From Candidatus Aenigmatarchaeota archaeon (GTDB taxonomy: Archaea > Aenigmatarchaeota > Aenigmatarchaeia > QMZP01), in NCBI GenBank assembly GCA_016185435.1, contig JACPNN010000021.1:269-64268 (forward strand): 64,000 nucleotides of DNA, written 5' to 3'. The translations under genes and the position numbers were made by a program. Below the pieces are notes generated by a model. It saw nothing but the letters and a program-made list of their open reading frames with translations, did no database searches and was not told the origin of the DNA. This document shows positions 2,433 to 36,640 of this stretch, piece after piece (position 1 is the first letter of the stretch; the number at the start of each line of letters is the position of its first letter).

Positions 2433-3080
2433 TTACCATGGAAGGTCTATCCTTGCTTCATCGCTGGCATACTTTTCTCCGGTCTCAGTGTCAAGTTTGT
2501 CTTCGTAATAAAACGGATCAATGAAAAAGGTTTCCGGAGAGCCGTCTGGGTTAGCTCTCATAACAAATTCGCGGTCCTCGTGAAATTTAGGAACAATTCT
2601 CAATGCTTTTCCTTGGCTGATATCCTCAGTGATTAGAATCGCAGACTGGCGGTGCAGTTTTCCGGGACCCTCATTATTCCACGCGACTATACCGGTGAAA
2701 TATGGCGGATTTTTGTGGGTATTGAAGGCCCTTTCAAAGGCCCCCAGCTCCCTTATGGCGTCAGGGCCTTCCAGCATGTATGGCCTTTTTTTTACGACCC
2801 GCAGCGCCACATGGATTTTCCGGCCATCTATTGAGTCGTCTATTGCCCCTACACTGTAAACTGAATGCATTTGTCCGTGCCCCAGCACCATGATGTCCTC
2901 AGGCAAAGCTTCACCCAGGTACTGATGCGTGAATGTGCCTTTTATCCTGGATATCATGGCCCTGTCTCCAAGAATGAAGGGCTTGAGCCTCAGCACTCTC
3001 CCGTAATATTCGCCAGCGCTGGCAACGTCGGACTGCGGTTTGGAGGCATAAATTGAATCCATCTGCAGAAATAATTGCAA
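2433..3080 (-). CDS. metallophosphoesterase-like protein (MJ0936/Vps29-like), N-terminal motif not evident
   Basis: Motifs FILGDRAMIS and VLGHGQMH resemble phosphoesterase motifs II and GHxH; assignment tentative. Confidence 0.3.
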   Translation of the reverse strand: MQLFLQMDSIYASKPQSDVASAGEYYGRVLRLKPFILGDRAMISRIKGTFTHQYLGEALPEDIMVLGHGQMHSVYSVGAIDDSIDGRKIHVALRVVKKRPYMLEGPDAIRELGAFERAFNTHKNPPYFTGIVAWNNEGPGKLHRQSAILITEDISQGKALRIVPKFHEDREFVMRANPDGSPETFFIDPFYYEDKLDTETGEKYASDEARIDLPW

Positions 3081-3425: not shown

Positions 3426-4088
3426 ATGAAAAACAGGATTCAGCAAATATACGGCAGGCTTTTGAAGCATTACGGAAAGCAGGATTGGTGGCCTGTAAGA
3501 AGATCCTTTGAGCCTGAGTGGTTTGAGATTTGTGTCGGTGCCGTATTAGCCCAAAACACAAGCTGGAAAAATGTGGACAAAGCCCTTGACGGACTGATGA
3601 GAGAAGGCATGACAAGCCCGTCTGCTGTTCTGAAAGCTGATCCAGATAAGCTGAAAAAAGCAATCAGGCCGTCAGGATTTTACAACCAGAAGGCAGAGAG
3701 ATTAAAAATCCTTTCCACTCTCATCCTGGATTCAGGCATAGATAATTTCCAGCAAAAGATGACAAGGGAAAGTCTCCTTTCGGCCAGAGGGATAGGGAAG
3801 GAGACGGCAGACAGCATCCTGCTTTATGCGTGTGACAGGCCTGTTTTTGTAGTCGATGCATACACAAAAAGAATATTTTCCAGGATCGGGCTTATGGAAG
3901 AAAAACTGGAGTATGAAAAAATAAGGGAATTGTTTGAGAATGCCATTGAAAAGGATTCTGGTTTATTCAGGGAATACCATGCCCTGATAGTTGAGCATGC
4001 CAAACAGACATGCGGAAAAGAACCTCTCTGTAGAGAATGCTGCCTTCTTCAAGTGTGCAAATATGGAAAAGGGAAAGCAAATCAGTAA
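3426..4088 (+). CDS. nth: HhH-GPD family DNA glycosylase (endonuclease III-like) with C-terminal Fe-S cluster loop
   Basis: LLSARGIGKETADSILLYA...VVDAYTKRIFSRIG helix-hairpin-helix/GPD region; C-terminal CGKEPLCRECCLLQVC (Cx6Cx2Cx5C-like). Confidence 0.65.
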   Translation: MKNRIQQIYGRLLKHYGKQDWWPVRRSFEPEWFEICVGAVLAQNTSWKNVDKALDGLMREGMTSPSAVLKADPDKLKKAIRPSGFYNQKAERLKILSTLILDSGIDNFQQKMTRESLLSARGIGKETADSILLYACDRPVFVVDAYTKRIFSRIGLMEEKLEYEKIRELFENAIEKDSGLFREYHALIVEHAKQTCGKEPLCRECCLLQVCKYGKGKANQ

Positions 4089-5110
4089 TCCACCCTGAAC
4101 CTCAGCATCGCTGCTATTCCCCCGAGATGCAGCAGCTTTTCTCCGGACTCGTGATCCGAGGAGATGAAAATGATTTTCGAGGAAATTTTTTCTGCCGAAT
4201 CTATCATATCCCTGAAATCCATCATCTTCTCCTCTGATACCAGAAGAAGCTCAACTGCGCCATATTCTATCGCCTTTTTTGTCTCCTTTTCGCCATAAAC
4301 GGCCTTCCCTTCAGGCTTTGCAATTTCTTTCAGGAGGTTTTCCACAAGATCGGTTTCCATGGCAATTCTCGTAGTCCGCAGGATCCTGTTGGCAGATTTC
4401 TTGATAACCTCCTTTGCGCCTGATATTCCTATGTAGCTTGAATGTTCGAGCAAAGCTTTTGCAGCCAATGGATTCTTATTTTCTTTCAGGTATTCCAGGA
4501 AGTTCTCCCTCTCGAAGCCAGGCCCCGCGATTATCAGCATGCTGAAGCCTTCCTTCTGCTGGATGTATTCTGCAACCTGCCTGTAGAAGGCATTCTTGCC
4601 CTCTTCCTGCTCCTTTTCCCTCGAAACCTTCTTGAAGCTGATGCTTGCAAGCATCTCCAAGCCCTCATCGGAATAGACTGCAAAATCAGCCTCCTCCCTG
4701 TCTATCAGGCATATCAGTATCCTCTGGCCCTTCGTCTTTGCCTTTTCAAGCCTCTCAAGCTGGTGCCTCTTCCACTGCTTCCTGATCTGAAGGGCCACGC
4801 CTGCCTTAGCATCCATGGTATGGTGGCTGGCTAATTTAATGTCTTCAGGCCCTGAAACTATTTTCCCGGACAATCTAAGCCTTGAAGTGTCCTTGTGGTA
4901 TGAGAATTTCTCCAATTCAATTGAGAGTATGACGGGCTTCCTTTCACCATAATCTATTTCCTGCTGCCTCTTTATCGTGGTCTTCCTCCTCGTCTTCCCC
5001 GTTATTATGTCCCCGGCCTCCAGCATCTTCTGCAGGTGCCACAGGTCTTCAGGGCCCTCTATCTTCAGCTTTACGATGCCTTCCTTCAGCCTTCTCTTGA
5101 GGATTCTCAT
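4082..5110 (-). CDS. pelA: Pelota/Dom34 mRNA surveillance (no-go decay) factor
   Basis: 342 aa, eRF1-like domain architecture, length and composition typical of archaeal Pelota. Confidence 0.65.
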   Translation of the reverse strand: MRILKRRLKEGIVKLKIEGPEDLWHLQKMLEAGDIITGKTRRKTTIKRQQEIDYGERKPVILSIELEKFSYHKDTSRLRLSGKIVSGPEDIKLASHHTMDAKAGVALQIRKQWKRHQLERLEKAKTKGQRILICLIDREEADFAVYSDEGLEMLASISFKKVSREKEQEEGKNAFYRQVAEYIQQKEGFSMLIIAGPGFERENFLEYLKENKNPLAAKALLEHSSYIGISGAKEVIKKSANRILRTTRIAMETDLVENLLKEIAKPEGKAVYGEKETKKAIEYGAVELLLVSEEKMMDFRDMIDSAEKISSKIIFISSDHESGEKLLHLGGIAAMLRFRVDY

Positions 5111-5130
5111 AAGAAGAATTGGATTCCTTA

Positions 5131-6537
5131 TTAATCAAGCAGGCCGTGCTGCCTGGCCAAATTCCGCTTCGGATCGTATGGGTCCGAGAGGTCCACTATC
5201 AGCCACTTCTCGCCTACTCTGACATCCACCTTTTCCCAGCATCTCTCCGTGAAGCGTATCGTGCCCTTTCCGACGGCATTTCCCCTGTAAAAGGCTCTCG
5301 TGTCGTTTGGCGGAGCTGATACGGCTTCCTCAATCTGTCGGTCTGTCACGATTCTTTCGGTAGCGCCTCTGGCCTGCAGCATGTAGAAAAGTCCATCCTC
5401 CCCAAGAAGGTGGTAGTACAGATCGAAGGTTTCAGCCTGTTGGTCCCCAAGCGAAAAGCCTTCCTTGGCCATCAAATCCTCGAGCATGGCAAGCTTAAGC
5501 CAGCAGTCGTACCATCTGCCGAGCCTCCAAGGATTTTCCACTGGGTTTCTTGAAAGCTCGTCGAGAGTGTACTCCCACCTGTTGAGTATGTCCGCACTCT
5601 CTCTGTCTTTCTTCCACTCCCTGTTCTCCTTCTGCATCCGCCTGGCCTCGTCAAGAAACGCCCTCTGTATTTCGACGGCCGTGGCTTTGGCACCTCCGGG
5701 AGAGGACAGGGCTGCCTTATGTTGCAGAGACAGATCGCATGCTATGTCATAGAAGCTTTTTACTGCATCCTCGAGAACGTTGCCCGGATGCCTGCCTGCA
5801 TTCAGCAGGCTGAGCACTATTGCAGTGGTGCCGGCTTTCATGTATGTTGCCATCTCTGACATGTTCGCATCTCCGTCGCGCACCGAGAGCCTCCCTGACA
5901 CTTGAAGTTTGCTAATGTTGTTCGGAGACCTGAGTTTCTGGGAAAGTGTGTAGGAGCCTTCCCGGACAGATCCTGAGCCTGTGAATATCTGCCTTGTCGC
6001 GAGGAAAGATGCGAGATGCTTGGAGTCTGCAATCAGGACCAGCTTTTCCGGCACATAATAGTTCTCATGACAGCCGTAGACGCTGATCTTCCTGCGGGCA
6101 GACTTGGAATTTTCGGGGTGGCCAAAATCGGTTCCAGCATTGTTCTTGAATACGGCATGGCGTGGGAAGCGCTTTTCTATAATCCTTTCCCCTGCCTTGT
6201 CATCAATGACGAGATTTGCGGGGCCGGAGCATTCAGGTGTGCTATACTCCACATGGCAACCTACATCAATGTAAGTCAGGCCGCCGTTCGGCAGCCACTG
6301 ATAGAGGTATGGCACAGTACCGTCTCCGTTCATGCCTCCGAAATATATTGGTCTCGCAGCATGTCCCTCGTCCATCGGCAATGGATAGCCCTTGCTGCAT
6401 TTTTTGATTTGTCTGAGATCGACTTTCCTTCCTACAAATGTCCGAATTACCTCCCTCAGATGCGCCCTGAAATCGTTGTCGAGCGAGCCTGTCGTCATTA
6501 TGCTGTATTCAGTCTCCAGACCCATTATGGTTTTCAT
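5131..6537 (-). CDS. PafA/Dop-family (Pup ligase / depupylase-like) carboxylate-amine ligase
   Basis: From the internal Met, MKTIMGLETEYSIM matches the PafA N-terminal RIxGxEtEYG block. Further matches to M. tuberculosis PafA: YIDVGCHVEYSTPEC, FKNNAGTD...YGCHENYYV, LATRQIFTGSGSV, DANMSEMATYMKAGTTAIVLSLL, TDRQIEEAVSAPPNDTRAFYRGNAV. About 469 aa, PafA-like length with no Dop-loop insertion. Confidence 0.65.
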   Translation of the reverse strand: MKTIMGLETEYSIMTTGSLDNDFRAHLREVIRTFVGRKVDLRQIKKCSKGYPLPMDEGHAARPIYFGGMNGDGTVPYLYQWLPNGGLTYIDVGCHVEYSTPECSGPANLVIDDKAGERIIEKRFPRHAVFKNNAGTDFGHPENSKSARRKISVYGCHENYYVPEKLVLIADSKHLASFLATRQIFTGSGSVREGSYTLSQKLRSPNNISKLQVSGRLSVRDGDANMSEMATYMKAGTTAIVLSLLNAGRHPGNVLEDAVKSFYDIACDLSLQHKAALSSPGGAKATAVEIQRAFLDEARRMQKENREWKKDRESADILNRWEYTLDELSRNPVENPWRLGRWYDCWLKLAMLEDLMAKEGFSLGDQQAETFDLYYHLLGEDGLFYMLQARGATERIVTDRQIEEAVSAPPNDTRAFYRGNAVGKGTIRFTERCWEKVDVRVGEKWLIVDLSDPYDPKRNLARQHGLLD

Positions 6538-6671
6538 TGCCCTGCATCTCTTCCATCGAAACTGCATCTGAATTGGGAAGGAAGCAATTTAACCCTTCTC
6601 TAAAAACGGCATTTGAATATCAGTTTGTGAGGCAATCTCTTTTTATTACTTGAAAGGCCAAATATCAAATA

Positions 6672-7820
6672 ATGGGTTCCGGAAATCGTTCCAGAGAAAT
6701 GAAAGGAGAGGAGAAAGGCGACAATGGCTTCATTTATGTCCTGATAGCAGGAGTGGTTGTGCTGGCGGCGCTTTTCATTCTTGGCCCGATGATACAGCTC
6801 CCGGAAGACACAGGCAAAGTGAAGGCCGTCCACACATTCTCAGTGGGCAAGGTCGGCGTGTCCGCAGGCAGCTTCAAGAGCCAGACAATAGGCACTTTCC
6901 AGGTTGGTGAGACACAGAAAGAGGTGCTGAAGCTGCTTGGAAGAGTGGAGATAGAAAACGGCATCCCAGGCACAAAAACTCAGGAATATCCAATAGCAAT
7001 CCCTGACTATCTTCTTGAATCCCTTAAGGACATAAAAGTTTCCTTTGACATTGTGGAGACAAACCAGTATGGAGAGCTTATATTCGAATGGAACGGGAAG
7101 GAGGTGTTCAGAAGGAAGGCGGCCAGCAGGGAGTGGAGCTTCACCATACCAAGGGATAATGTGGGCAGGCTCAACACGCTTAAGGTGCATGCCTCTTCGC
7201 CAGGCCTCATATTCTGGGCATCGACCGTATACAAGCTCGAGCCATTCGAGGTGTCTGCAGAATACGGCCCGTCAAAGCTCTTCGGCTTCCAGCTGAGCCA
7301 AAAGGAGCTGGAGACGTTCAGCAGGGGGGAGATAGAGTTTTATTCGCTTTCAGGGGCCAAGCTTTCCGTAAGGATCAACGGCAGGCAGATATTCAGCAGG
7401 CCTCCTGAAGGCACAGAAAAGCTCATATTCGATTTCAGCACTGCTCCTGTCTTCTTCGGCCAGAATGTCCTGTCCTTCGAATCATCTTCGCCCGTCACTA
7501 TTGACGGCGCAAGGCTCAAGCTCTATGTGCAGGCCCCTGCAACGGCCTTCCTGGAAAGGTTCAACCTCACAAAGGCCAATATCAACAGCATGAAGAACAA
7601 CAAGGGGAGGGTGAAGGTGGCCGTATCCAGTGTTGACAGGCCGGGAAGCCTCGCAGTTATGCTCAATGGAAAAACGATAGGATCGGAAACTGTTCTGGAG
7701 GTCGCATCCCCCACTTACAAATTTGACGGGGCCGATGCGAGAGAAGGCATGAATGAGATACAGATAACAGGGACAGGGGAGTTCGAGATTGGCCAGGCGG
7801 TTGTGGGGGTTGAGGGGTGA
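6672..7820 (+). CDS. membrane-anchored extracellular protein of unknown function
   Basis: N-terminal TM helix (FIYVLIAGVVVLAALFILG) followed by ~340-aa hydrophilic domain; last 23 aa duplicated downstream at 8519-8590. Confidence 0.45.
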   Translation: MGSGNRSREMKGEEKGDNGFIYVLIAGVVVLAALFILGPMIQLPEDTGKVKAVHTFSVGKVGVSAGSFKSQTIGTFQVGETQKEVLKLLGRVEIENGIPGTKTQEYPIAIPDYLLESLKDIKVSFDIVETNQYGELIFEWNGKEVFRRKAASREWSFTIPRDNVGRLNTLKVHASSPGLIFWASTVYKLEPFEVSAEYGPSKLFGFQLSQKELETFSRGEIEFYSLSGAKLSVRINGRQIFSRPPEGTEKLIFDFSTAPVFFGQNVLSFESSSPVTIDGARLKLYVQAPATAFLERFNLTKANINSMKNNKGRVKVAVSSVDRPGSLAVMLNGKTIGSETVLEVASPTYKFDGADAREGMNEIQITGTGEFEIGQAVVGVEG

Positions 7821-7885
7821 TATTGCCGATATGACATTAATTGAGCCAACTGCTGCTGGTATTCTCAGCGATATTCTCTATATTT
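7749..7885 (+). repeat. copy A of ~137-bp direct repeat (spans 3' end of gene 6672-7820 and 5' end of gene 7831-8517)
   Basis: Aligns at ~80% identity with 8519-8655, including ATGAATGA(R)ATMCAGAT...GCCAGGCGGTTG(Y)GGGGGTTGAGGG and CCAACTGCTGCTGGTATTCT. Confidence 0.7.
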
Positions 7886-8517
7886 ATGTAAACCTGATAT
7901 TGCCTCTGTTATTTGTGTTTATGGTTTTTCGCACCCTTGACAAGAAGCGCAATATTTTCCTCAGGCTCGCGATTTCTTCGGCCGCATTTATCATAATGGT
8001 AGCATTTATGTCTTCAATACCACATTTTTTCCCTTCTTCTGCTTGGAGCTCATTATGGATCCCTTCTCTGGCAATCGCTTCCCTTTTTTATGCCACTTTC
8101 AAAGAGAAAAACAAAGCTGGCAAAAGGCTGACATTGTCCATAGGCGTTTTTGTTGCCCTGATAGCTGTGGGACTAGTCATTTCTGAGCTTTTAGGTGAAG
8201 AGGTGTTTAGGGGTCTTGGTGATAGTTTGATTATTCCTGAAGGTCCTGCAGTTTGCCAATACGGGATAATAGAGGCATTTGCTAGCACAACAGATGAGAC
8301 TTTGAATGCCGATTCCATAGTATTGAAAGAGCTTCGGGATTCAGAGGGAAACCCGGTAAAAGGTTTCGATGTGCTTCCTGACGCTTTCCCCCTCAGGAGG
8401 GGAGAGCCGGCCAAGAAAATCATAAGCTTCAACTGCGGAGGAACATGCACAGGTACCTATACGATGATTCTTGTAAAAAACATCAAGAGAATAACTCGCA
8501 CTGTGACATGCGAATAA
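7831..8517 (+). CDS. 4-TM membrane protein with Cys-containing C-terminal domain, unknown function
   Basis: MTLIEPTAAGILSDILYIYVNLILPLLF... hydrophobic N-terminal half; C-terminal FNCGGTCTGTYTMILV...VTCE; flanked by direct repeats. Confidence 0.4.
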   Translation: MTLIEPTAAGILSDILYIYVNLILPLLFVFMVFRTLDKKRNIFLRLAISSAAFIIMVAFMSSIPHFFPSSAWSSLWIPSLAIASLFYATFKEKNKAGKRLTLSIGVFVALIAVGLVISELLGEEVFRGLGDSLIIPEGPAVCQYGIIEAFASTTDETLNADSIVLKELRDSEGNPVKGFDVLPDAFPLRRGEPAKKIISFNCGGTCTGTYTMILVKNIKRITRTVTCE

Positions 8518-8738: not shown

Positions 8739-9383
8739 ATGAATTCTAATGTAAAACGCGCACTAATTGAGCTTAAGGAAGGCAAGATGATTGTACTGTA
8801 TGATGAAGACAAACGAGAAGGCGAAGCTGATTTAATTTTTCATGCGGCCTCTGTAAACCCTGAAAAGATTGAAACGCTAAGAAGACATGCGGGAGGGTTA
8901 ATTTGTCTGGCAATCGGTAAGAATATAGCAGAAAGACTTAACTTGCCTTTTATTAGCGATGTTCTTGCAAGCAATCAGACAGCTGCAAAAATGATAGTCA
9001 AGAAAACGGCTTATGGAGATAAACCTGCATTTTCTATTGCTATCAATCACAAAAGCGTGTATACCGGGATACCGGATAACGATCGTGCACTAACGATAAG
9101 GGAGTTTGCAAAAATAATAAATGAAAATAATAGAATAGAAGGAAAGTTTGTAAACAACTTCTATACGCCTGGGCACGTTTTTCTTTTGATCGATCGTGGA
9201 TTAGAGGTGCGAAGAGGGCACACCGAACTTTCGATAGAACTTGCGAAACGATCAGGATTAAGCGAAGCCATGGTACTTTGCGAAATGCTCGGGGAAGGCA
9301 AGGCGCTTAGCAAAAAAGCTGCGATGGAATATGCTAAAAGTCGCAACTTAGTTTTCTTAGAAGGGAGGGAGATATATGGTTAA
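8739..9383 (+). CDS. ribB: 3,4-dihydroxy-2-butanone 4-phosphate synthase (RibB)
   Basis: LYDEDKREGEADLIFHAA and TPGHVFLL motifs of DHBP synthase; AT-rich codon usage unlike the flanks. Confidence 0.7.
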   Translation: MNSNVKRALIELKEGKMIVLYDEDKREGEADLIFHAASVNPEKIETLRRHAGGLICLAIGKNIAERLNLPFISDVLASNQTAAKMIVKKTAYGDKPAFSIAINHKSVYTGIPDNDRALTIREFAKIINENNRIEGKFVNNFYTPGHVFLLIDRGLEVRRGHTELSIELAKRSGLSEAMVLCEMLGEGKALSKKAAMEYAKSRNLVFLEGREIYG

Positions 9384-10272
9384 AGAGAGAGAAAAGAAAA
9401 AGATTGGTATTGTCGACACGATGTTCTCAAGAATAGATATGGGTGCGATAGCTCTGGATGAACTTAAAAAAGCGAAAGGACTACAAATAAGTAGGAGAAC
9501 TGTTCCTGGGATAAAAGATATTGGAGTTGAATGCAAACGCTTAATCGAAGAAGATGACTGTGATGCGTGTTTGGCTTTAGGTTATGTTGGCGGTGCAGAA
9601 ATAGATAAACAATGCGCGCATGAGGCATCTCTAGCCATAATGCAAGCTAAGCTTTTAACCAACAAACATATTCTGGAGGCGTTTGTATTTGAGGACGAGG
9701 CATGGAACGAGACAGAGTTATTGGAAATTGCAGAAAATCGCGTTCGCAAGCATGCGCAAAATGCTGTTGCGATTGTAAAAAATCCAAAAGCACTTACTAA
9801 ATTTGCTGGAAGAGGAATAAGACAAGGAAAGGAAGATGAGGGAGAGATAGAAGAAACGAATAAGAAATTTGCTATGGGCGTTGTTGTTTCTGAATTTAAT
9901 AAGGATATTACTGGAAAAATGGAAAGTATCGCTAAGCAGTATGCAGAGAAAAGGGGGATTACAATAAATAGAATAATCAAAGTTCCAGGTGCATATGATA
10001 TTCCGTTAGCAGCTAAAAGATTGCTAAGCGAAAAGGATGTAGATGCAATAGTAACGCTAGGGGCAATTCTAAAAGGAGAAACAAAGCATGATGAGGTAAT
10101 TGCACAATCAACTGCTATGATGCTTTCCCAGCTAGCGTGTGAATTTAGGAAACCTGTGGCGTTAGGGATAATAGGTCCAAAAGTTACATGGGAACAGGCA
10201 AGCGAACGCGCAGAAGGCTATACAAAGCGCGCTATAGACGCTGCGATTAAATTATACGAGGCGATAAAATGA
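9376..10272 (+). CDS. ribC-ribH: archaeal-type riboflavin synthase (RibC) fused in frame to lumazine synthase (RibH)
   Basis: N-terminal half KKIGIVDTMFSRIDMG...RTVPGIKD...CAHEASLAIMQAKLLTNKHILEAFVFEDEA matches archaeal RibC (MJ1184-like). C-terminal half ...KVPGAYDIPLAAKRL...GAILKGETKHDEV... matches the RibH fold. Single continuous 298-aa ORF. Confidence 0.6.
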   Translation: MVKEREKKKIGIVDTMFSRIDMGAIALDELKKAKGLQISRRTVPGIKDIGVECKRLIEEDDCDACLALGYVGGAEIDKQCAHEASLAIMQAKLLTNKHILEAFVFEDEAWNETELLEIAENRVRKHAQNAVAIVKNPKALTKFAGRGIRQGKEDEGEIEETNKKFAMGVVVSEFNKDITGKMESIAKQYAEKRGITINRIIKVPGAYDIPLAAKRLLSEKDVDAIVTLGAILKGETKHDEVIAQSTAMMLSQLACEFRKPVALGIIGPKVTWEQASERAEGYTKRAIDAAIKLYEAIK

Positions 10273-10436
10273 GCGTCAAGCATATTGCAAACTCTCTATT
10301 CTTCCAACACAGTTTGGCAAATTTATGGTTCATGCGTTTGTTGATGATGACAAAAAAGAGCATATCGCATTAGTGAAAAAAGTAAGAGTGATATGACAGC
10401 AGTGCGCATCCATTCAAAATGTTTTACTGTCGCGCA

Positions 10437-10480
10437 AACCCCCTCAACTTGACCTCCTGTACAAGCGAATTCCAGTTGAT
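10437..10480 (+). repeat. intergenic ~38-bp conserved motif, copy 1 (GTCGC(G/A)CA...CCCTCAACTTGACCTCCTGT(A/G)CAAGC)
   Basis: ctgtcgcgcaaaccccctcaacttgacctcctgtacaagcgaat; related copies at 11784-11829 and 12661-12700, all same orientation, each at a cassette boundary. Confidence 0.6.
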
Positions 10481-10591
10481 TGGCAGGATACAGAGCACAA
10501 ATCCTGCAGTCTGCAATCCATTGGACGGCAGGAAATTTTTCGTGAAAAAGGCCGTATTGGCCATCCTTGCAAAGGCCGTTTTCGGCATGAT

Positions 10592-11158
10592 ATGAAATGG
10601 TACAAGAAATACCATGATTTTGGTAAAGTATTTAAATATCAGAAAGAATATACCATTAAAGTGGTAAAAATGGTCTCAGTGGAAACATTGATGAAGGAAG
10701 GCAAAGTAAGCAGGATAAGGGAGCTTGAAGTGGAAAGATACGTGAATTTCTTTGAGAATTCATACAGGGACAATCTGGGGCACTGCATGTTCAGCCTAAA
10801 GGAATTCCCGAGATGGAGCATCATTTCAGGGTATTACGCCATGCACGACATCACTAAGCTGCTTATTGCAAAGAAGTACAGGCTGAAAATAGAGCTGGAA
10901 GTTCATGCAACCACCATAAAAGTCCTGAAGGAATTATTGGGGGACAGGGTAATTCTGCGGCTGATCGAGAGGGGATACAGGGAATTCATTTCTTTGGCCA
11001 ACGATCTTGCCGAAGCAAAGAGGCAGCGAACTCGGGCGCAATATTACACAGGCACAGAATACATGAAAGAGCATTTCGGAAAGATGTCCGAAGAGTTCCT
11101 TGCTGCAACAGTCAATCCGTACGTGCAACGCATCAGAAAGCTCCTGGAGGCGGCGTGA
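10592..11158 (+). CDS. HEPN-domain protein (toxin component of HEPN/MNT module); internal start at 10670 possible
   Basis: GYYAMHDITKLLIAKKYRLK... HEPN-like helices; 4-bp overlap with downstream nucleotidyltransferase gene. Confidence 0.55.
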   Translation: MKWYKKYHDFGKVFKYQKEYTIKVVKMVSVETLMKEGKVSRIRELEVERYVNFFENSYRDNLGHCMFSLKEFPRWSIISGYYAMHDITKLLIAKKYRLKIELEVHATTIKVLKELLGDRVILRLIERGYREFISLANDLAEAKRQRTRAQYYTGTEYMKEHFGKMSEEFLAATVNPYVQRIRKLLEAA

Positions 11159-11724
11159 TTATGATAAGCCAGATATTCGACAGCGGGTCCTTCAAAGTGC
11201 TGGCGCTGTTTGCGCTGTCGCCGGGCTCGAGGTTCAGGAGAAAGGAGATAAAGGAAAGGATAAAGTTACACAATGTGCCGCTGGATAAATCTCTTTCCAA
11301 GCTTGCCAGTTCGGGCATGATAAAAAAAGAAGGCGCCTACTATTCCATAAACTTTGGAAACAGTCAAACGGAAAATGTCATAACCATTGTTGCACAACAG
11401 CATAAGCAGCTGAAAAACATCCCGCTGGATGTCCACTTGCTGCTTGCTGATATTGCTGCAGAGATCGCTGCCATCAAAGGGCTGGAGATCTGGCTTTTCG
11501 GCTCTTATTCAAAGCTGGTATACAGCGAAAAATCAGATGTGGATGTTGCGGTTCTCGGGCCGGAAAGCATCGATAAGCAGCGCATCAGAAGGCTTTTCAA
11601 AAGGCTGGAAAGGCATTACGGCAAAGAGATAGGGGAGCATTTTTTCGAGCTGCATGCCTTTTACAGGAATAAAAAGGACCCGCTCGTGAAGGAGATACTG
11701 CAACATGGGATACGTCTTCTATAG
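11155..11724 (+). CDS. minimal nucleotidyltransferase (MNT) of HEPN/MNT pair
   Basis: LEIWLFGSYSKLVYSEKSDVDVAVLG = GS...D.D nucleotidyltransferase-fold motif. Confidence 0.6.
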   Translation: MIMISQIFDSGSFKVLALFALSPGSRFRRKEIKERIKLHNVPLDKSLSKLASSGMIKKEGAYYSINFGNSQTENVITIVAQQHKQLKNIPLDVHLLLADIAAEIAAIKGLEIWLFGSYSKLVYSEKSDVDVAVLGPESIDKQRIRRLFKRLERHYGKEIGEHFFELHAFYRNKKDPLVKEILQHGIRLL

Positions 11725-15330: not shown

Positions 15331-16153
15331 TTAGGTGATTAGGTCATTTCCGGACCAAATTACCTCCTTTTGTTATATTGACCAACAACTTAAAAACATC
15401 TTCGTTCCGGTGGTTGAACCGGAACTCCATTTCCTTCAGATAGAACGGATAGTTGACCATGTTGATGCCGTGATATTTGTGGAATCGTTCCTTGGCATAT
15501 GACCAGAATCCTTCTATGCCATTGATGTGATTGTGGGACTTGCCAAAAGTGTATCCATGATTGATTTTGTTGTGCTTGCCGAACTGTTTCAGGGACTTGT
15601 ATGACTTGAAGTAGTCTGTGTAGAACACAGAACCCTTCACAGACTTCTTCTTTATCTCACCCATCAGCGTCTTGGCTTTGACATTGATCACGACTTTGGT
15701 GTAGACCTTGCCATTGCGTTCCAGTATGCCGAATACGATAGCCTTGTTGAATGCCCCACGACCTCTCTTGCCCTTCCTCTTGCCGCCGAAATATGTCTCG
15801 TCAAGCTCCAGTTGTCCGGCGAGCTTAACGAATTCCTGGTCTAGATGCGCCATTATGGACATTCTGAAATCCATGTATCGGGCATGAACGGTCCTATACG
15901 GCACTGAAAGCTCTTTGGCGGCTTTGAGCGCTGATACTTCGATATAGAAGTAGTACAGAATCTCCAGGTCTCTCCTTAACTTGTGCAGGCTGTATGCACG
16001 TCTGCAATGTCTGCATTTTTTCCTTCCGTCGGCAAGTTTGTACAGGCCGTACTTGCCGCAGTAGAAGCACTTTTTGCCGTTGAAAATGTTGTCTGGCACT
16101 CTTTTCGATAGCATTATACCCTTTTTTGGTACGGAACTTTATCAATCACCTAA
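15331..16153 (-). mobile_element. IS1595-family insertion sequence (~823 bp) with ~29-bp imperfect terminal inverted repeats
   Basis: Left end TTAGGTGATTAGGTCATTTCCGGACCAAA (15331-15359); right end reverse complement TTAGGTGATTGATAAAGTTCCGTACCAAA (16125-16153); single transposase ORF inside; no clean target-site duplication seen. Confidence 0.7.
15344..16114 (-). CDS. tnp: IS1595-family (ISH4-like) transposase
   Basis: N-terminal CxxC...CxxC zinc finger, DETYFGGKRKGKRGRGA...VFGILER...TDYFKSY...HNKINH conserved blocks. Confidence 0.7.
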   Translation of the reverse strand: MLSKRVPDNIFNGKKCFYCGKYGLYKLADGRKKCRHCRRAYSLHKLRRDLEILYYFYIEVSALKAAKELSVPYRTVHARYMDFRMSIMAHLDQEFVKLAGQLELDETYFGGKRKGKRGRGAFNKAIVFGILERNGKVYTKVVINVKAKTLMGEIKKKSVKGSVFYTDYFKSYKSLKQFGKHNKINHGYTFGKSHNHINGIEGFWSYAKERFHKYHGINMVNYPFYLKEMEFRFNHRNEDVFKLLVNITKGGNLVRK

Positions 16154-17495: not shown

Positions 17496-18119
17496 TTACA
17501 AAGTATCTGACCACAATTCGTCAACAGTGTAGCTTATTTTGTTCTGTTTGAGAAAGCCCAGTATTTGTTCCCTGTTTTCCATTGGAATCAGGATGACGGC
17601 TTTCCCCAGTTTTTTGCCCTTGAACTTTTTAACCAGGCCCATTCCGGTATAAACCTTGTTTCCAACCTTCTGCTTATATCCATACAGCTTCCTCCATATC
17701 CTCATTTGCCTGGACGGCCCGATGCCTTTCAAACTCATCTTTATCAGCATATAATAACAGATTTTTTCCGGCATTTCATTATACTTCCCATACAGCAATA
17801 TTCCAGAGCTTATTACCTCCCTTCTTAAAGACCATTCTCTAAGATTTCCGACTTTGACCGTGATTTCATTGGCTACTCCTTTCAGCTTCCAGATTTCATA
17901 AATGCTGGACATTCTGAAGAGAGACAGCAGTTTATCAACCTCCTTTTCAATGTCCACATGCGTATCTACAAACAGATCCACATCACTTTCCTCATCAAAG
18001 TCACCTCTCGCGACAGAGCCAAAAAGGATTATTTTGTCTATTTTATCGGCTATTTTGCTGTCCAGCAAGAACGAGGCAAAACTCATGGCATAACCCATCA
18101 GACTATTTCTCTCCGCCAT
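17496..18119 (-). CDS. minimal nucleotidyltransferase (MNT) of HEPN/MNT pair 2
   Basis: ILFGSVARGDFDEESDVDLFV motif; paralog of 48162-48794 (LYGYKQKVGNKVYTGMGLV vs LYGYRQKTAYYKGMIEL). Confidence 0.6.
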   Translation of the reverse strand: MAERNSLMGYAMSFASFLLDSKIADKIDKIILFGSVARGDFDEESDVDLFVDTHVDIEKEVDKLLSLFRMSSIYEIWKLKGVANEITVKVGNLREWSLRREVISSGILLYGKYNEMPEKICYYMLIKMSLKGIGPSRQMRIWRKLYGYKQKVGNKVYTGMGLVKKFKGKKLGKAVILIPMENREQILGFLKQNKISYTVDELWSDTL

Positions 18120-18504
18120 ACATCACCTCCTTTATTATCCTTTCAAGCCCCTGAAATATTTCAACCGCTTTCCTTGCCATCTCAGCCTGCTTTGGGGCGC
18201 CATATGACAGTTTCTCGCAAATCTTTTCCAATTCAAGCATTTTGTTTATAATGGCGGCCCTGTTCCTGAATTCCGGCAATCTGCCAAAAACCTTTTCAGA
18301 TTTAAACCATGTATGGTTTATTTGAAACCCCTCTTCTATCTTCTTTTCTTTGTGCAAACATGCAGACAGCAGCTCTACAATCCCTTTGGAGGCATTATCG
18401 CCTATAATCCTCTGGGAATTCTCAAGACCCCTGACTTCGATTGCCCACTTGAATATCGTCTCCTTCCTTTCCTCAAATGCCTCTAAATGTTTTTCAGGCC
18501 TCAT
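18103..18504 (-). CDS. HEPN-like partner of MNT (pair 2)
   Basis: 133-aa helical protein overlapping the MNT gene by 17 bp; paralog of 47771-48169. Confidence 0.45.
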   Translation of the reverse strand: MRPEKHLEAFEERKETIFKWAIEVRGLENSQRIIGDNASKGIVELLSACLHKEKKIEEGFQINHTWFKSEKVFGRLPEFRNRAAIINKMLELEKICEKLSYGAPKQAEMARKAVEIFQGLERIIKEVMYGGEK

Positions 18505-20888: not shown

Positions 20889-21575
20889 TTATTTCCTCTT
20901 CTCCTGCTTCTCGGCTAGCCTCAGGAATTTCCTCAGGAAATCCTTTGCCTCGTCCCTTATCGCAAGGCCGAAGCCGATACCGAGAGCGAGGGCGGCAGCG
21001 AAGAGGGCTGCGGCCGTTATCAGGAGGATGATGTTCTCAGCAAGGGAGAATTTCAGGCCGAACTGCTCGATGGCCGTGAAGGCAAGAACAATGATAAGGA
21101 ATGCCCTGACAATCCTTATTGCGCCGCTGAACAGCTTGTCCCTTGAGATGATTCTGAGCGTGAAGAAATCGATAATCACAATGCCTACCGCTATCACTAT
21201 TGCGGCCAGCACGAGTTTTGTAAGCCAGAACATCAGCAGCTGGGCAAACGGGGATAAAAATCCTAGGTCAATGGCCTCAAAAAGTCTGCCTGCAAAGACT
21301 GCAAAAAGAGACCATTTTGCAGCGGAGCCAAAGATGGGCGCAAGGCTAGTGGCACCGAATGTGTCCTTCCTGTCCTCAGCCCTGAGCAGCCTGTCTATGC
21401 GGATCCTGTGGAGGACGTTCTTCACGGCAAGGCCGACAATATATGCGCCTATGTATATGAGGGCAAGGAATACCAGCACTATGAGCAGCTTTGGCAGAAG
21501 GGACACAGATTTGGAAAAGAACTCTGACAACGGGATAATGAAAATCTGCTGGAGCATCTCGCCAATATCAGCCAT
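20889..21575 (-). CDS. multi-pass membrane protein with repeated conserved TM-helix units (MscS N-terminal-like)
   Basis: Several ~20-aa hydrophobic helices separated by short charged loops; + strand ORF 20881-21603 is its antisense. Confidence 0.4.
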   Translation of the reverse strand: MADIGEMLQQIFIIPLSEFFSKSVSLLPKLLIVLVFLALIYIGAYIVGLAVKNVLHRIRIDRLLRAEDRKDTFGATSLAPIFGSAAKWSLFAVFAGRLFEAIDLGFLSPFAQLLMFWLTKLVLAAIVIAVGIVIIDFFTLRIISRDKLFSGAIRIVRAFLIIVLAFTAIEQFGLKFSLAENIILLITAAALFAAALALGIGFGLAIRDEAKDFLRKFLRLAEKQEKRK

Positions 21576-22878
21576 ATTGAATGTTGGAAAGCCTGCTTAT
21601 TAACTTTTCGGCCTTCTCTGTTTCCTTGGCCATGCCAGAAGCAAATTTCAGGGAAAGTTCAGCAGCCTGCTCATTTTCCAGACTTTCAGTTGCTCCCATT
21701 CCTCTGGCCTTCTTTATTATCCTGTCTGCAACCGTCTCCCTATCTTCTGTCATTTTCTCGAAAATCTGCAGCAATTTCCTATTTGCAGGGGATATAGAAC
21801 AAAAATCAAGCAGAGCCTTGCAATACCTCCTGACTTCTTTGCTTCCCATCCCTCTCTTTGCAGAGTGCAGCTGCAATCTGTCCACGAAATCGAAAGGAGG
21901 AATAAATAAAACCCCGTCTTCGGTTCTGAATGGCTCGTCAGCGGACTCACTGAAGGATACAGTCAGCCTTCCTTCCCCGATCTCCTTCAGCACATGCACT
22001 ATAATAACAGATGCTGAAAGCATATTGGAAAAGGTGCTCATGTCCATGCCCCTCATCTCGAATGTTCCTATGGAGTTCACCTTAATAGGCGACCAGTTCG
22101 TGTCAAGGGCTGCGCCATAGACTGAAAGCGCATTTGACCTAAGTCTCAGGATCCTCATTTTCCTTGACCATTCGCCGAACCTATCCTCGGCCTGGTAAAT
22201 CAGGGAAGTCACAGTGTGCCTGTAGGGAGGCAGCGCCCCGAATTCCTGGAATTCCGAATAAAGGCCTTCCACGCCGAAAAGCCTGTTTCCCCTGTAGAAC
22301 ATCATCCTTGCGTCCTTTCCGCAAAGCCTCCCCTGGTAGAAAGGGGATGACTGCAGGAATGCGCACAAGGCAGGATCCATGGCGACCATCATGTTGTAGC
22401 TGTCTATTGTCCGCTGGTTGAGGGATGGATTAAGAAGCAGACGCATGTTCCTGCTGAACCTGCTGAATATGCCCCTTGGAAGGGTATAGTGGAAATGGAA
22501 GCCTGTACACCTGCCAGCTATCTTCCATCTCTCCTTCCCGAATATCCTTTCCTTTATCCTGTATGCAGCCTCCTTCCTCATTTCAGGGTCGAAAGAGCCC
22601 GGATATGTGGAATAAGGATAAACATGCAGCATATGCTTTTCGGCAGCCGAAACAAGTAGCCTGATCTTTTCGAGCAGATCCCCCATTGAATCAGCCAGCA
22701 AAGCATACGGTTTCGAGGCGATTTCGATCATCCCTTTTGCGCACTCCTTTTTTGCTTGGCCAGTCATCTCCTTTATTATGACATCTGCCTTGTCTGAAAC
22801 TAACCCTTTCCCATCAATCAGATGAAATTCGGCCTCAAAGCCTGCAAGCCTCTGCTCCCTGAATCCGAACATATACAT
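21568..22878 (-). CDS. GCS2/YbdK-family carboxylate-amine ligase (gamma-glutamylcysteine ligase-like)
   Basis: N-terminal GFEAEFHLID block analogous to the GxExEF motif of GCS2 enzymes; ~430 aa. Confidence 0.45.
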   Translation of the reverse strand: MYMFGFREQRLAGFEAEFHLIDGKGLVSDKADVIIKEMTGQAKKECAKGMIEIASKPYALLADSMGDLLEKIRLLVSAAEKHMLHVYPYSTYPGSFDPEMRKEAAYRIKERIFGKERWKIAGRCTGFHFHYTLPRGIFSRFSRNMRLLLNPSLNQRTIDSYNMMVAMDPALCAFLQSSPFYQGRLCGKDARMMFYRGNRLFGVEGLYSEFQEFGALPPYRHTVTSLIYQAEDRFGEWSRKMRILRLRSNALSVYGAALDTNWSPIKVNSIGTFEMRGMDMSTFSNMLSASVIIVHVLKEIGEGRLTVSFSESADEPFRTEDGVLFIPPFDFVDRLQLHSAKRGMGSKEVRRYCKALLDFCSISPANRKLLQIFEKMTEDRETVADRIIKKARGMGATESLENEQAAELSLKFASGMAKETEKAEKLISRLSNIQYG

Positions 22879-27677: not shown

Positions 27678-27809
27678 TAATGCCCTTGCTGATTGTTTTC
27701 TTCAGCAGTCCGTCAAAAGCGAGGTAGCATCTCTTGATTGCAGTGGATTTTTTCAAAAAGAACAACACAAAGCAATGAGGATATTGGAGGAGACATGACT
27801 GACAGTTCC

Positions 27810-27893
27810 TCACCAATATTAACACCCAACCACAATTTCTTTTATGGCTCCAATCCTTTATCAGTATTTCCTGAATTTCCCCCTAAGGTCAGA
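27810..27893 (+). repeat. ~80-bp direct repeat copy 1: duplicate of the BatA-like gene start region
   Basis: tcaccaatattaacacccaaccacaatttcttttatggctccaat...ttcctgaa aligns at ~85% with 29220-29297, which contains the real start (MASILDQYFLNPY) of gene 29254-31107; copy 1 would encode MAPILYQYFLNFP then stop. Confidence 0.65.
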
Positions 27894-27898
27894 AGTTT

Positions 27899-28264
27899 CT
27901 ATGTATGGCCTTTATTCTCCAGCACAACCCTGTTCTCATCCAGGTCCATAAAAAGCGTCAGCCCAAAGAGCATCTCAGTTCCCATCAGCCCATCCTCAGA
28001 TTCCGTTGCAACGGCCTGCACGATTCGCTCTCTCCCAAACCAGCTGATTTTCCCACTATAGATGGTGGTTTCCACGATGGAGCCGTCTGCAAGTTCCGCT
28101 TCTGACTTCATGCTGTATTTGAAGCCCAAACCCTCAAGCATGAGACGGGGCAGCATCAATTCCCCGTTGAATCCCGTATCAACCACGACGCTGATTTTCT
28201 TTCCTGATATGGGGATTTCTATGTGAGGGGAGAAGGATTCATCAAAGGAACCCTCGATTTTCAT
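27899..28264 (-). CDS. retropepsin-like (clan AA) aspartic protease
   Basis: VVDTGFNGELMLP contains the D-T/S-G catalytic triad in retropepsin context; ~120 aa, consistent with homodimeric retropepsin-like proteases. Confidence 0.55.
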   Translation of the reverse strand: MKIEGSFDESFSPHIEIPISGKKISVVVDTGFNGELMLPRLMLEGLGFKYSMKSEAELADGSIVETTIYSGKISWFGRERIVQAVATESEDGLMGTEMLFGLTLFMDLDENRVVLENKGHT

Positions 28265-28265
28265 A

Positions 28266-28538
28266 TTATAGTGATGTGCGGTGTTTGAAGCTCACAGCAG
28301 CTTTGTAGCCTACCTTTGCGAGGAAGAATCTTTTGCCTGGATGTTCAGCGGCTGCCCTTTCATAGGCCTCGGACATTGTGTGGCCCAAGTAGTAGGCGCC
28401 GGAGTCAGGTTCAATGGCTACGTATTCTCCTTTGTGCTCCTGCTCAAGGATGGCTTTGAGACTGGTCTCGTAAATCCTTTTGCCTCTGCTCACAAGCTCG
28501 CCATTCCCTGCATCCCCTGTTTTCTGCATTATGGTCAC
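28266..28538 (-). CDS. small conserved partner protein of retropepsin-like protease
   Basis: 90-aa ORF; stop 1 bp from the protease start codon; no catalytic motif. Confidence 0.35.
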   Translation of the reverse strand: MTIMQKTGDAGNGELVSRGKRIYETSLKAILEQEHKGEYVAIEPDSGAYYLGHTMSEAYERAAAEHPGKRFFLAKVGYKAAVSFKHRTSL

Positions 28539-28635
28539 CCATTATCATTTGCTGAAAGGCCTTAAAAAGGAAAAATTTATGCCAGCCGCACATCCCCTTC
28601 CAGTGAGATGCCATCTGCAAGACGCTAGTAGTATC

Positions 28636-29020
28636 CGTTCGGTAAGAAGCAAGGGGTACAATGTAAACCTTTTGTAGGCGCTATAAATCCAAAAGGTTTA
28701 ATCCAAAAACGTGGTTGCTGGGGGGGGGTATATTGGGGAAATTCGTATATGTTCGGCAAGAAGCGAGGGGTAGAATGTGAACCTTTTCGAGATGAATTCG
28801 TTAAAAGGTTCAATCCAAAACAAACATCTGTAATGTTGGTTGCTCAGGGGAATAATGGGGAAATTCGTATATGTTCGGCAAGAAGCGAGGGGTAGAATGT
28901 GAACCTTTTCGAGATGAATTCGTTAAAAGGTTCAATCCAAAACAAACATCTGTAATGTTGGTTGCTCAGGGGAATAATGGGGGAGTTCGTACATGTTCGG
29001 CAAGAAGCAAGGGGTATAAT
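28636..29020 (+). repeat. tandem repeat, ~122-bp unit x ~3.5 (diverged partial unit, two near-identical full units, one partial)
   Basis: Units start at 28711 (124 bp), 28835 (122 bp) and 28957 (partial). Unit = gttggttgctcaggggaataatggggaaattcgtatatgttcggcaagaagcgaggggtagaatgtgaaccttttcgagatgaattcgttaaaaggttcaatccaaaacaaacatctgtaat. Unit length is not a multiple of 3. Confidence 0.8.
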
Positions 29021-29219
29021 GGGGACGGCACGTCCCCATGCTGGAGGCCCCATGGGACAGCATGTCCCCATAAGTGCAGTTTTGTTTTGGAATCGATAGC
29101 GCCGAAGTTAATGGATATGGAACTTTCCTTCAAGCTCATGGATGCCAACCCTTGGAATCCGGGCATGTTTTGAGGAATAAGCGCCCGCATTTGCCGCACA
29201 GTAGGGATATGAGAAATAT

Positions 29220-29297
29220 TCACCAATATTAACACCCTTCCACAATTTCTTTTATGGCGTCAATACTCGATCAATACTTCCTGAACCCCTACGGCCT
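29220..29297 (+). repeat. ~80-bp direct repeat copy 2 (authentic BatA-like gene start)
   Basis: See 27810-27893. Confidence 0.65.
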
Positions 29298-35483: not shown

Positions 35484-35796
35484 TATTGAAGCATAGATGG
35501 GGCGGCTTTGTGACAAAACTAGTTATGATCTCTATGAAAAAACTAATCATATCTCTCCTTCTATTTATCATTTGTTTGTCTACCAATAAATACCTCCAGG
35601 ACCAAATATATAGCAGAGCTGTTGTGCAAAAACACGATCCAGTACATGCTTTTCAGCATGGATATTCAATCGAAGAAATATTGCCGCAATAAAGGGAGTC
35701 TACTTTTCTTCTGGATGGGTATTTGAGTTTTGTCGCAAGCCCTAGATGGGGCAGAACCTTTAAATATCCAGAATATAATATTTCAATAGAGATATC

Positions 35797-36385: not shown

Positions 36386-36408
36386 CTTGGCCAAACTAGC
36401 CAAATTCT

Positions 36409-36443
36409 GAGCTGGTGAAGGCGTACAGTTTGAAGATAAGGGA
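36409..36443 (+). repeat. 35-bp perfect direct repeat copy 2
   Basis: See 35445-35479. Confidence 0.85.
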
Positions 36444-36448
36444 GTAGT

Positions 36449-36616: not shown

Positions 36617-36640
36617 CCTTACAGAACAATTACTTACATT

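Follow-up and report, generated by a model that had tools for sequence, protein, structure and literature searches.

A Pup_ligase-family protein in an Aenigmatarchaeota genome that is best described as neither PafA nor Dop

The ligase gene and its archaeal host

Pupylation is regarded as a bacterial system, known from Actinobacteria, Nitrospirae and a small number of further phyla, by which proteins are handed to a proteasome of archaeal type. Here we examined a gene of the PafA/Dop (Pup_ligase) family in a 64,000-nucleotide stretch of DNA (hereafter the window; positions 269 to 64,268 of contig JACPNN010000021.1, assembly GCA_016185435.1) from a Candidatus Aenigmatarchaeota archaeon. Judged by alignment with characterized enzymes, its product is best described as neither PafA nor Dop, a third structural type of the family residing in an archaeal host. 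The gene itself is already known, since NCBI holds an identical protein on a 97-kb contig under the automatic name 'PafA2 family protein [Candidatus Aenigmarchaeota archaeon]'; our literature search found no paper describing archaeal members of the PafA/Dop family.

That the host is archaeal, as an earlier note on this DNA had held, is evident from the genes of the window, which include a split RpoB, RpoA', an intein-containing RpoA'', RpoH, an archaeal histone, pelota and a gene of the diphthamide-synthase family. The identical ligase protein recurs on seven contigs assembled independently, archaeal genes flank it on both sides in contigs of up to 97 kb, and the guanine plus cytosine fraction of the 2-kb bin containing the gene (0.50) shows no anomaly against a range of 0.41-0.52 across the window. 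A second archaeal assembly (locus L007), carrying a related ligase designated P0002 (the window protein being P0001), has a matching neighbourhood with genes for histone, a DUF5679 protein, two unannotated membrane proteins, Pup_ligase, HhH-GPD, ferredoxin, PIN and TsaD. The neighbours named in the earlier note were likewise found in place: the ligase gene adjoins pelota, with which it may be co-transcribed, and on its upstream side, at a distance of 134 bp, a divergently transcribed gene for a membrane-anchored protein, memb382. At L007 ligase and pelota are separated by a DUF2334 gene (9372-10907), around which a sequence of about 24 bp, that of window positions 5118-5141, occurs in duplicate (repeats at approximately 9274-9297 and 10996-11019).

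The reading frame of the ligase is intact on the minus strand and extends over 5131..6567, which would give 478 amino acids if the in-frame ATG at 6567 were used. Since the syntenic relative shows no conservation of the 10 extra N-terminal codons, and the NCBI annotation has 468 amino acids, the true start is most likely the ATG at 6537, with a predicted protein beginning MKTIMGLETEY. Residue numbers and the positions of the main features (Table 1) follow this start.

Family membership and predicted fold

Both sequence and predicted structure indicate that membership in the PafA/Dop family, as the earlier note had proposed, is real. The window protein matched the Pfam model PF03136 (Pup_ligase) with 255 bits (E=1.9e-75, gathering cutoff 25), gave no match to PF04107 (GCS2) in the Pfam scan, and among proteins of solved structure matched in sequence only Dop (E=4e-48) and PafA (E=3e-31). 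The motifs on which the proposal had been based are all present in the open reading frame (ORF), namely GLETEYS, YIDVGCHVEYSTPEC, YGCHENY, ATRQ, GDANMSE and PPNDTRA. An AlphaFold2 model built from a 59-sequence alignment (mean predicted local distance difference test, pLDDT, 82.6; predicted template modelling score, pTM, 0.89) has the full two-domain Dop/PafA fold. In Foldseek comparisons this model superposed over its full length (about 510 columns) on Dop and PafA with template modelling (TM) scores of 0.77-0.79, while the next-best folds, GCL/YbdK, reached only about 0.4 (YbdK 0.41-0.44).

In an exhaustive HMMER search of 1.84 billion cluster representatives the two archaeal proteins stood apart with 958 and 928 bits, the third-ranked match having 232 bits; 3,830 clusters matched at E<=0.001. 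P0002, which is 37% identical to the window protein by BLASTP and 44% in a global alignment, is the sole close relative among about 15 billion proteins, and the two together make up what we call the window clade. The nearest outsiders are 'short-form' homologs of 390-450 amino acids. Neighbour-joining grouped the window protein and P0002 as monophyletic in 94 of 100 bootstraps, among the divergent and short forms, the sister group being unstable. In a scan of GTDB genomes the family came out as overwhelmingly bacterial, since all 80 loci kept out of at least 600 matched stretches were bacterial; the window's own genome was not among them, and the scan says nothing about archaeal distribution.

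The active site departs from both PafA and Dop

The earlier note had also described the protein as matching PafA block by block, and here its account fails. The score against the PafA equivalog model of NCBIfam (TIGR03686) was 191.9 bits against a cutoff of 551.3, and that against the Dop equivalog (TIGR03688) 200.6 bits against 492.3. We took residue roles from the published Dop-Pup structures (PMC8599861) and mapped them onto the window protein by alignments. Retained are the equivalents of the Dop Mg ligands E8, E10, Y92, E99 and H155, the catalytic D94 and W453 (Trp434 in the window protein), together with GDxNMSE, TRQ and PPxxTRA. Five of the six residues of the Mg-ligand set are therefore kept along with the catalytic Asp; the sixth, H241, is Ser in both the window protein and P0002, which we refer to as alleles for reasons given below. 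An Arg equivalent to Dop R227 is probably kept as Arg203.

Four substitutions are common to both archaeal alleles. Dop R90, an alpha-phosphate contact two residues before the Tyr, is replaced by Leu (Leu87 in the window protein); H241, a Mg and phosphate ligand and the His of RLH, by Ser (Ser218); H231 of the nucleotide pocket (DEPH) by Asn; and the arginine of SQR (Dop R205, PafA R201), which forms a salt bridge to the C-terminal carboxylate of Pup (PMC8599861), by Lys. Both alleles also have a deletion of about 20 residues that removes the alpha-loop (Dop F208-K220) and the following RPIIN. The alpha-loop touches the last residue of Pup via T217, and its exchange contributes to turning Dop into a ligase (PMC8599861). 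We considered a deletion of the entire INTRDEPHA block and rejected it, as the alignment shows the alpha-loop and RPIIN gone and the R227 equivalent probably kept.

In Dop the Dop-loop comprises 40-65 residues before strand beta2, with W47 in the motif W-D-Y/F..NPL.DARG (PMC8599861). The Dop-specific loop, whose presence the earlier note had left to be checked, was not found as such: an insertion of about 60 residues fills its position in the window protein, lacks the W47-bearing W-D-Y..NPL.DARG motif and has no similarity to the Dop-loop. Residues 46-61 and 66-75 of the insertion are modelled with pLDDT below 50. The insertion in P0002 is shorter and unrelated, and this is the region of lowest identity between the two alleles. 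As aligned, both direction-setting elements, the Dop-loop motif and the alpha-loop, are absent from the window ligase.

Conservation counts gave a similar picture. Of 100 columns with at least 90% conservation across 57 further members of the family, 73 are kept in the window protein and 67 in P0002, and at 13 columns that discriminate canonical Dop from canonical PafA the window protein has the Dop state once, the PafA state four times and neither state eight times. Other divergent members of the family likewise differ at R90 and at H241, the latter often being Glu; because of this the nucleotide/phosphate site appears plastic rather than simply broken.

Table 1. Positions of the ligase gene, its sequence landmarks, selected neighbours and homologs at other archaeal loci; positions without a locus prefix are those of the window
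Feature	Position	Strand	Description	Basis
Pup_ligase-family coding sequence	5131..6537	-	468 aa from the most likely start, ATG 6537	ORF, PF03136, NCBI protein, L007 start comparison, AlphaFold/Foldseek
ETEY motif	6505..6516	-	Residues 8-11 (468-aa numbering); equivalent to Mg ligands Glu8 and Glu10 of Acidothermus Dop	Alignment to Dop 4b0r, PMC8599861
Clade-specific insertion	6298..6477	-	Residues ~21-80, at the Dop-loop position, without the Dop-loop motif	Alignments, pLDDT
YIDVGCHVEYSTPEC block	6229..6273	-	Residues 89-103; Tyr89, Asp91 (catalytic Asp, Dop D94) and Glu97 retained	Alignments
GCHENY motif	6058..6075	-	Residues 155-160; His157 equivalent to Mg ligand His155 of Dop	Alignments
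SQK and shortened linker	5890..5943	-	Residues 199-216; alpha-loop and RPIIN deleted, DEPH replaced	Alignments, PMC8599861
RLSVRDGDANMSE	5854..5892	-	Residues 216-228; His of RLH replaced by Ser218, GDxNMSE retained	Alignments
PPNDTRAFYRG	5281..5313	-	Residues 409-419, in the C-terminal domain unique to pupylation enzymes	Alignments, Foldseek
C-terminal tail VDLSDPYDPKRNLARQHGLLD	5134..5199	-	Residues 447-468; 19/22 (86%) identical in the second allele	
pelota	4082..5110	-	20 bp downstream of the ligase, same strand	Pfam eRF1_1/2/3
memb382	6672..7820	+	Divergent neighbour with class III (type IV pilin-like) N-terminus, ...EEKG followed by DNGFIYVLIAGVVVLAALFIL; possible functional partner	
TM242	7789..8517	+	Multi-pass membrane protein, overlaps the end of memb382	40% identity with saturated pS
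Clade (b) ligases	L090 2465-3757; L092 6346-7659		Directly downstream of aIF5A; Spt5 and L11 nearby in L092	
Candidate tag ORF MDYKEEGGVAVLDAPGSDYGTATKKKSSRFTPEVLRELGRGVKPEEIVYKQSTRE	L093 8757-8924	+	Directly upstream of ligase; identical in L096 1974-2141	
Candidate tag ORF MNEFESEGTVALLEPPVHGVKPARPAYGDLARELDVYVGTGPRGRQYKQEGGE	L094 5806-5967	+	Directly upstream of ligase; identical in L095 48-209	

Ancient alleles in a conserved backbone

Comparison of the window with L007 revealed that the ligase diverges far more than its surroundings. Flanking DNA is 79-87% identical and the neighbouring proteins 75-95% identical, whereas the ligases share 37% and the proteins of the TM242 position 40% identity, and hyp215 is replaced outright (2433-3080, minus strand; the L007 gene at the corresponding position is wholly dissimilar). 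Within the ligase gene blastn aligned only the first ~75 and last ~65 nucleotides. Nei-Gojobori estimates for the ligase gave a proportion of synonymous differences (pS) of 0.74, corresponding to a saturated synonymous divergence (dS) of about 3, and a nonsynonymous to synonymous ratio (dN/dS) of 0.18, compared with dS of 0.08-0.97 and dN/dS of 0.07-0.34 in the neighbour genes. Third-position identity is 0.58-0.59 at both ends of the ligase gene and 0.37 in the middle 370 aligned codons; in the backbone neighbour genes it is 0.60-0.71.

Because synonymous sites are saturated and dN/dS is 0.18, the two ligases are ancient alleles, both under purifying selection. Relaxed or neutral decay was rejected on the same two observations. 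Most simply read, the divergence profile records a recombination event in which one allele was exchanged for another of ancient divergence, its breakpoints lying a short way inside the gene. TM242, like the ligase, is an anciently diverged allele between window and L007. We had considered the near-identical tail DLSDPYDPK..LARQHGLLD as a functional motif for proteasome docking or self-tagging, but rejected this since both gene ends show synonymous identity at the backbone level, so that the tail would mark a recombination junction; a special function is also disfavoured by its alignment with the ordinary PafA-type DPF C-terminus.

This ancient allelic dimorphism within a conserved backbone is a second puzzle of the locus. 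Where such dimorphism occurs, it is usually in genes of biological conflict or for surface-exposed proteins. A defence-island reading, prompted by the allelic hyper-divergence, was rejected, as the ligase, memb382, TM242, hyp215 and P0002 had no match to PADLOC-DB defence models at E<=0.01. Viral origin, prompted by the allelic pattern, was rejected, as no relatives were found in IMG/VR.

Diverged direct repeats surround TM242, one of 75 nucleotides with 77% identity (7749-7823/8519-8593) and one of 56 nucleotides with 84% identity (7832-7887/8598-8653); in the second copy 23 codons of the memb382 C-terminus survive as a remnant, along with the beginning of a further transmembrane-protein gene that the ribB region truncates, and the arrangement resembles what a tandem duplication of a cassette at a variable locus would leave behind. 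The two proteins of the PIN pair share 94-95% identity with their L007 counterparts, with dS of 0.08-0.12 compared with 0.3-1.0 in other backbone genes, which suggests recent exchange.

Search for a tag and a proteasome

Searches for partner genes covered the 64-kb window. Among the long ORFs scanned we found no 20S proteasome, no ARC, Mpa or PAN ATPase and no Cdc48, the only AAA+ protein being an intein-containing MoxR in a BatA/vWA operon. The Pfam Pup family had no match among 140 intergenic small ORFs of the window, and no credible small ORF there ends in G[EQ]. The earlier note's statement that Pup, Mpa/ARC and 20S genes are not in view thus stands. Pup, a protein of 50-90 amino acids with a C-terminal G[EQ], is reported to be invariably adjacent to the PafA-family gene (Iyer et al. 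2008, PMC2588565). No such adjacency exists at the window ligase, and no adjacent tag gene is possible because the flanks measure only 20 and 134 bp. The linkage to 20S proteasome and Mpa/ARC that is typical of PafA was also absent within the 64 kb.

Other archaeal homologs and candidate tags

The window protein is not alone in archaea, for at least three further small clades of Pup_ligase homologs lie on archaeal-looking contigs. The first, clade (a), is P0130, labelled Aenigmarchaeota, with Alba and Sua5 as neighbours. Clade (b) comprises P0270, P0271, P0169 and P0329, with the gene order FtsZ, FKBP, aIF5A, Pup_ligase, PurS, Peptidase_M50 (L090 and L092). A tag-like ORF was sought at the clade (b) loci and none was present; a 54-amino-acid ORF following the L090 ligase was rejected as a tag, being a basic Cys4 zinc-ribbon protein that ends in KKT, and the L40e label that we had given it by eye was not confirmed by Pfam.

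Clade (c) contains P0330 and P0129, which are 47% identical to each other and lie inside a type IV pilus/Tad-like operon; P0123 was joined to them by a shared sequence signature alone. The gene order is a T2SSE ATPase, two T2SSF genes, a small ORF, Pup_ligase and five or six small pilin-like proteins, for which DUF7266 scored above the Pfam cutoff, DUF7289 just below it, and DUF7287 and DUF7288 only very weakly. By position, size, architecture and C-terminus the small ORFs are candidate tags. They encode 53-55 amino acids and end in ...YKQEGGE in one case and ...YKQSTRE in the other, and both have an N-terminal E.G.VA.L..P, a C-terminal YKQ...E and a terminal Glu, GGE being the canonical Pup ending. 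A profile of the two ORFs, and likewise a regular expression for a Pup-like C-terminus, matched only these among 4,327 stop-to-stop ORFs at nine loci. Neither the Pfam nor the NCBIfam models of Pup and UBact matched the archaeal candidates. A metagenome scan with the tag alignment found nothing, and one with the clade signature returned only an identical locus, one very divergent homolog and one bacterial PafA. A very divergent Pup_ligase homolog (L097 5533-6897, plus strand; PF03136 198 bits) lies on a 168-kb metagenome contig and has GLHESY instead of GCHENY and VEVEY instead of ETEY. The ligases of clades (b) and (c) keep the equivalents of R90 and H241 as well as [RK][DG]EPH, and by these residues their active sites look canonical.

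A pilin-like neighbour

The divergently transcribed memb382 stands beside the ligase in both genomes and is 84% identical to its L007 ortholog. With a simple N-terminal filter, for which pilus-operon proteins served as positive controls and which picked out those of DUF7289 type, memb382 was the sole protein with a class III-like N-terminus among 64 window ORFs, and its ortholog the sole one among 18 L007 ORFs. These features are suggestive only, but would fit memb382 as a probable cell-surface fibre (pilin-like) protein. Our best contextual guess, by analogy with clade (c), is that the window ligase is linked to this adjacent protein rather than to a proteasome.

Comparison with known enzymes

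Dop, the depupylase and Pup deamidase, of Acidothermus cellulolyticus (4B0R, 5LRT, 7OXV-7OYH) is the best sequence match in the PDB. Besides the two-domain fold, the window ligase has in common with it the aromatic of TRA[YF] and an insertion at the Dop-loop position; it differs in lacking the W47 motif and the alpha-loop with T217, in the replacements R90->L, H241->S, H231->N and R205->K, and in having an archaeal host and no Pup gene nearby. With the Pup ligase PafA (Corynebacterium glutamicum 4B0T/4BJR and M. tuberculosis PafA; the TM scores given above are those to 4BJR) it shares the D-x-G-x-H spacing after the catalytic Asp, the DP[FY] C-terminal segment and the PafA state at 4 of the 13 discriminating columns. 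Unlike PafA it lacks an equivalent of H188-S200, has Lys for R201, has lost the Arg and His of the nucleotide/phosphate site, carries the N-terminal insertion of 60 residues and stands outside any Pup, Mpa and 20S cluster.

The closest company is that of the short-form 'PafA2 family' homologs (P0121, P0130, P0270, P0330 and others), which occur in DPANN-like archaea and in Planctomycetota and Armatimonadota bacteria. Armatimonadota and Planctomycetota are among the phyla that bear UBact. The short forms and the window ligase have in common KAGE.I, RW.YVLD.L..DP, LFY.LQ..G..ERLVTD and a DP[FY] C-terminus, and in the exhaustive search the short forms scored up to 232 bits. Several short forms lie on archaeal-looking contigs without proteasome genes, one clade beside pilin-like genes. 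They are nevertheless only 31-38% identical to the window protein; P0270, P0330 and P0129 retain NGGR, the alpha-loop region, [RK][DG]EPH and RLH, unlike the window ligase, and the pilus-operon clade has an adjacent ORF ending in GGE or TRE whereas the window clade has none.

A bacterial parallel for the genomic context exists in Plesiocystis and Rhodopirellula, whose Pup ligases are linked to a membrane-protein gene and not to the proteasome, and for which non-proteasomal modification of membrane proteins was proposed (Iyer, Burroughs and Aravind 2008, PMC2588565). The window ligase gene likewise lies beside a membrane-protein gene and is unlinked to proteasome genes. In both of those bacteria a Pup gene still adjoins the ligase gene, and the ligase has an inserted segment of four transmembrane helices; the window protein has neither.

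Interpretation

The explanation that we prefer, and to which we give an even chance, is that the window protein is a functional, lineage-specific offshoot of PafA/Dop, a carboxylate-amine ligase of the GS fold that is stably resident in an uncultured DPANN-type archaeon. Such an enzyme would still perform Mg-dependent chemistry on a gamma-glutamyl-type amide bond, and its reaction would presumably be the making or breaking of an isopeptide or amide link at the terminal Glu or Gln of a peptide or protein. The more open substrate pocket and the remodelled nucleotide/phosphate site, as read from the alignments, would imply a substrate or phosphoryl donor other than Pup and ATP, and the caution in the earlier note that the enzyme may use another tag or act differently was right. 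We lean slightly to the ligase direction, because the protein has neither the Dop-loop nor a Dop-type alpha-loop and has more residues in the PafA state. It would have no role in a Pup-proteasome operon, and its target may be tied to the adjacent pilin-like protein; surface or membrane rather than proteasomal targeting is suggested by memb382, by clade (c) and by the membrane-linked bacterial ligases (PMC2588565).

Several points weigh against this explanation. The loss of R90, H241, H231 and the alpha-loop could reflect lost catalysis rather than a changed substrate, and the tag, proteasome and ATPase may be encoded elsewhere in the genome, outside the 64 kb. We found no relatives of the clade (c) tag candidates in the window or L007, and in Pfam, even at E<=5, memb382 had no pilin match and no family. 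The argument from the adjacency of ligase and memb382 is post hoc and comes from only two genomes. Finally, clade (b) does not fit a surface or membrane pattern, as it adjoins aIF5A without surface genes, and there is no single context common to the archaeal clades.

A more ambitious version, which we consider rather unlikely, is that a conjugation system resembling pupylation exists in some archaea, coupled not to the proteasome but to surface structures of the type IV pilus or pilin-like kind, with the window enzyme as a stripped-down derivative. The complete module would then be the short-form ligase with its 53-55-amino-acid tag in the PilB/TadBC/pilin operon of clade (c). The window enzyme, standing beside memb382, would have lost the alpha-loop and part of the nucleotide site and been kept in ancient alternative alleles together with a neighbouring membrane protein, and it would use another tag or directly modify the pilin-like protein or its Lys-rich cytoplasmic leader.

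It is similarly doubtful that the protein is a pseudoenzyme, a catalytically dead PafA/Dop fold serving as a binding, scaffold or regulatory subunit that might, for example, bind a C-terminal peptide unmodified. Both alleles have lost three residues, R90, H241 and H231, that contact nucleotide, phosphate or Mg and are conserved in at least 95% of the family; the alpha-loop is deleted, GAGK is replaced by S and DW by C or V, and in P0002 H97 is also changed to Q and NMSE to Q. Purifying selection is compatible with a non-catalytic role. On the other side, saturated divergence notwithstanding, neither allele has lost any of the acidic Mg ligands, His155, the catalytic Asp, GDxNMS, TRQ or the probable R227 equivalent, and the variability of R90 and H241 in other divergent members points to a plastic site.

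We regard as improbable a canonical pupylation enzyme whose Pup or UBact tag, proteasome and unfoldase are encoded outside the window. Our view covers 64 kb, part of the genome, and the GGE-ending Pup-like ORF beside the ligases of clade (c) makes archaeal tags plausible. Archaea generally encode 20S proteasomes and PAN or Cdc48, which could lie elsewhere in this genome. Against this, the PafA and Dop equivalog scores fall below half of their cutoffs, the element that contacts the Pup C-terminus is deleted and the R201/R205 equivalent is Lys. In addition Pup is reported as invariably adjacent (PMC2588565), yet the flanks leave no such room, and neither a Pup match among the small ORFs of the window nor a relative of the archaeal tag candidates was found there or at L007.

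There is little probability, too, that the protein has lost its specificity for a protein tag and become a small-molecule carboxylate-amine ligase forming a gamma-glutamyl amide or similar product, like GS, GCL or YbdK. The GS-type catalytic core, a pocket that the alpha-loop deletion would open and the absence of a nearby tag gene in the small-ORF scans are consistent with it, whereas the low TM scores to GCL/YbdK and the lack of metabolic context (the neighbours are pelota and membrane proteins) argue against it.

Bacterial contamination of the bin or a recently transferred, decaying and functionless orphan (a transferred orphan was one option in the earlier note) is scarcely credible: although every source-labelled entry in our first list of homologs beyond P0002 (30-38% identity) was bacterial, as is most of the family, synteny and selection effectively refute both, with archaeal genes on both flanks in contigs of up to 97 kb, the same position filled by an intact ORF in a second archaeal genome, two ancient alleles with dN/dS of 0.18, the identical protein in seven independent assemblies and no GC anomaly.

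Our results show enzymes of the PafA/Dop fold to be stable residents of several small archaeal lineages, where they are under selection and in no case linked to a proteasome. The window version departs from both functional types, so far as alignment can tell, exactly where the direction of the reaction is set and the last residue of the tag is held. If it is active, the family covers a wider range of chemistry and substrates than before, and the protein may offer a naturally minimal scaffold relevant to PafA-based proximity-labelling tools. Should the relatives in pilus operons use the GGE-ending ORF as a tag, they would represent both the first Pup-like system of archaea and the first connected with surface filaments, with a bearing on the origin of pupylation.

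Other features of the window

The earlier note had pointed to a second ligase of the same superfamily at 21568-22878 (minus strand). It is indeed a carboxylate-amine ligase of the GCS2 family (PF04107, 33.4 bits; cutoff 21), but its neighbourhood is an unrelated one of osmolyte and ion-channel genes, with two MscS-type channels, an inositol monophosphatase, a fused trehalose-6-phosphate synthase/phosphatase and a Na+/H+ exchanger, which suggests osmoadaptation and offers no tie to the Pup_ligase gene. Three stretches of 1.1-1.6 kb, at 27678-29253, 35484-36640 and 46286-47770, contain no long ORF; a tRNA scan and an Rfam search at gathering thresholds were both empty for the window, these stretches included. 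Inteins of the LAGLIDADG homing-endonuclease type interrupt two genes on the plus strand, the MoxR-type AAA+ ATPase of the BatA/vWA/DUF58 operon (36641-39475) and RNA polymerase A'' (56015-58714). Toxin-antitoxin-like pairs and a transposase were observed at 927-1570, 10592-11724, 17496-18504, 47771-48794 and 15344-16114; the pairs are of the VapB/PIN type or consist of a nucleotidyltransferase gene (three cases) with a small unannotated partner, and the transposase belongs to the IS1595 family.

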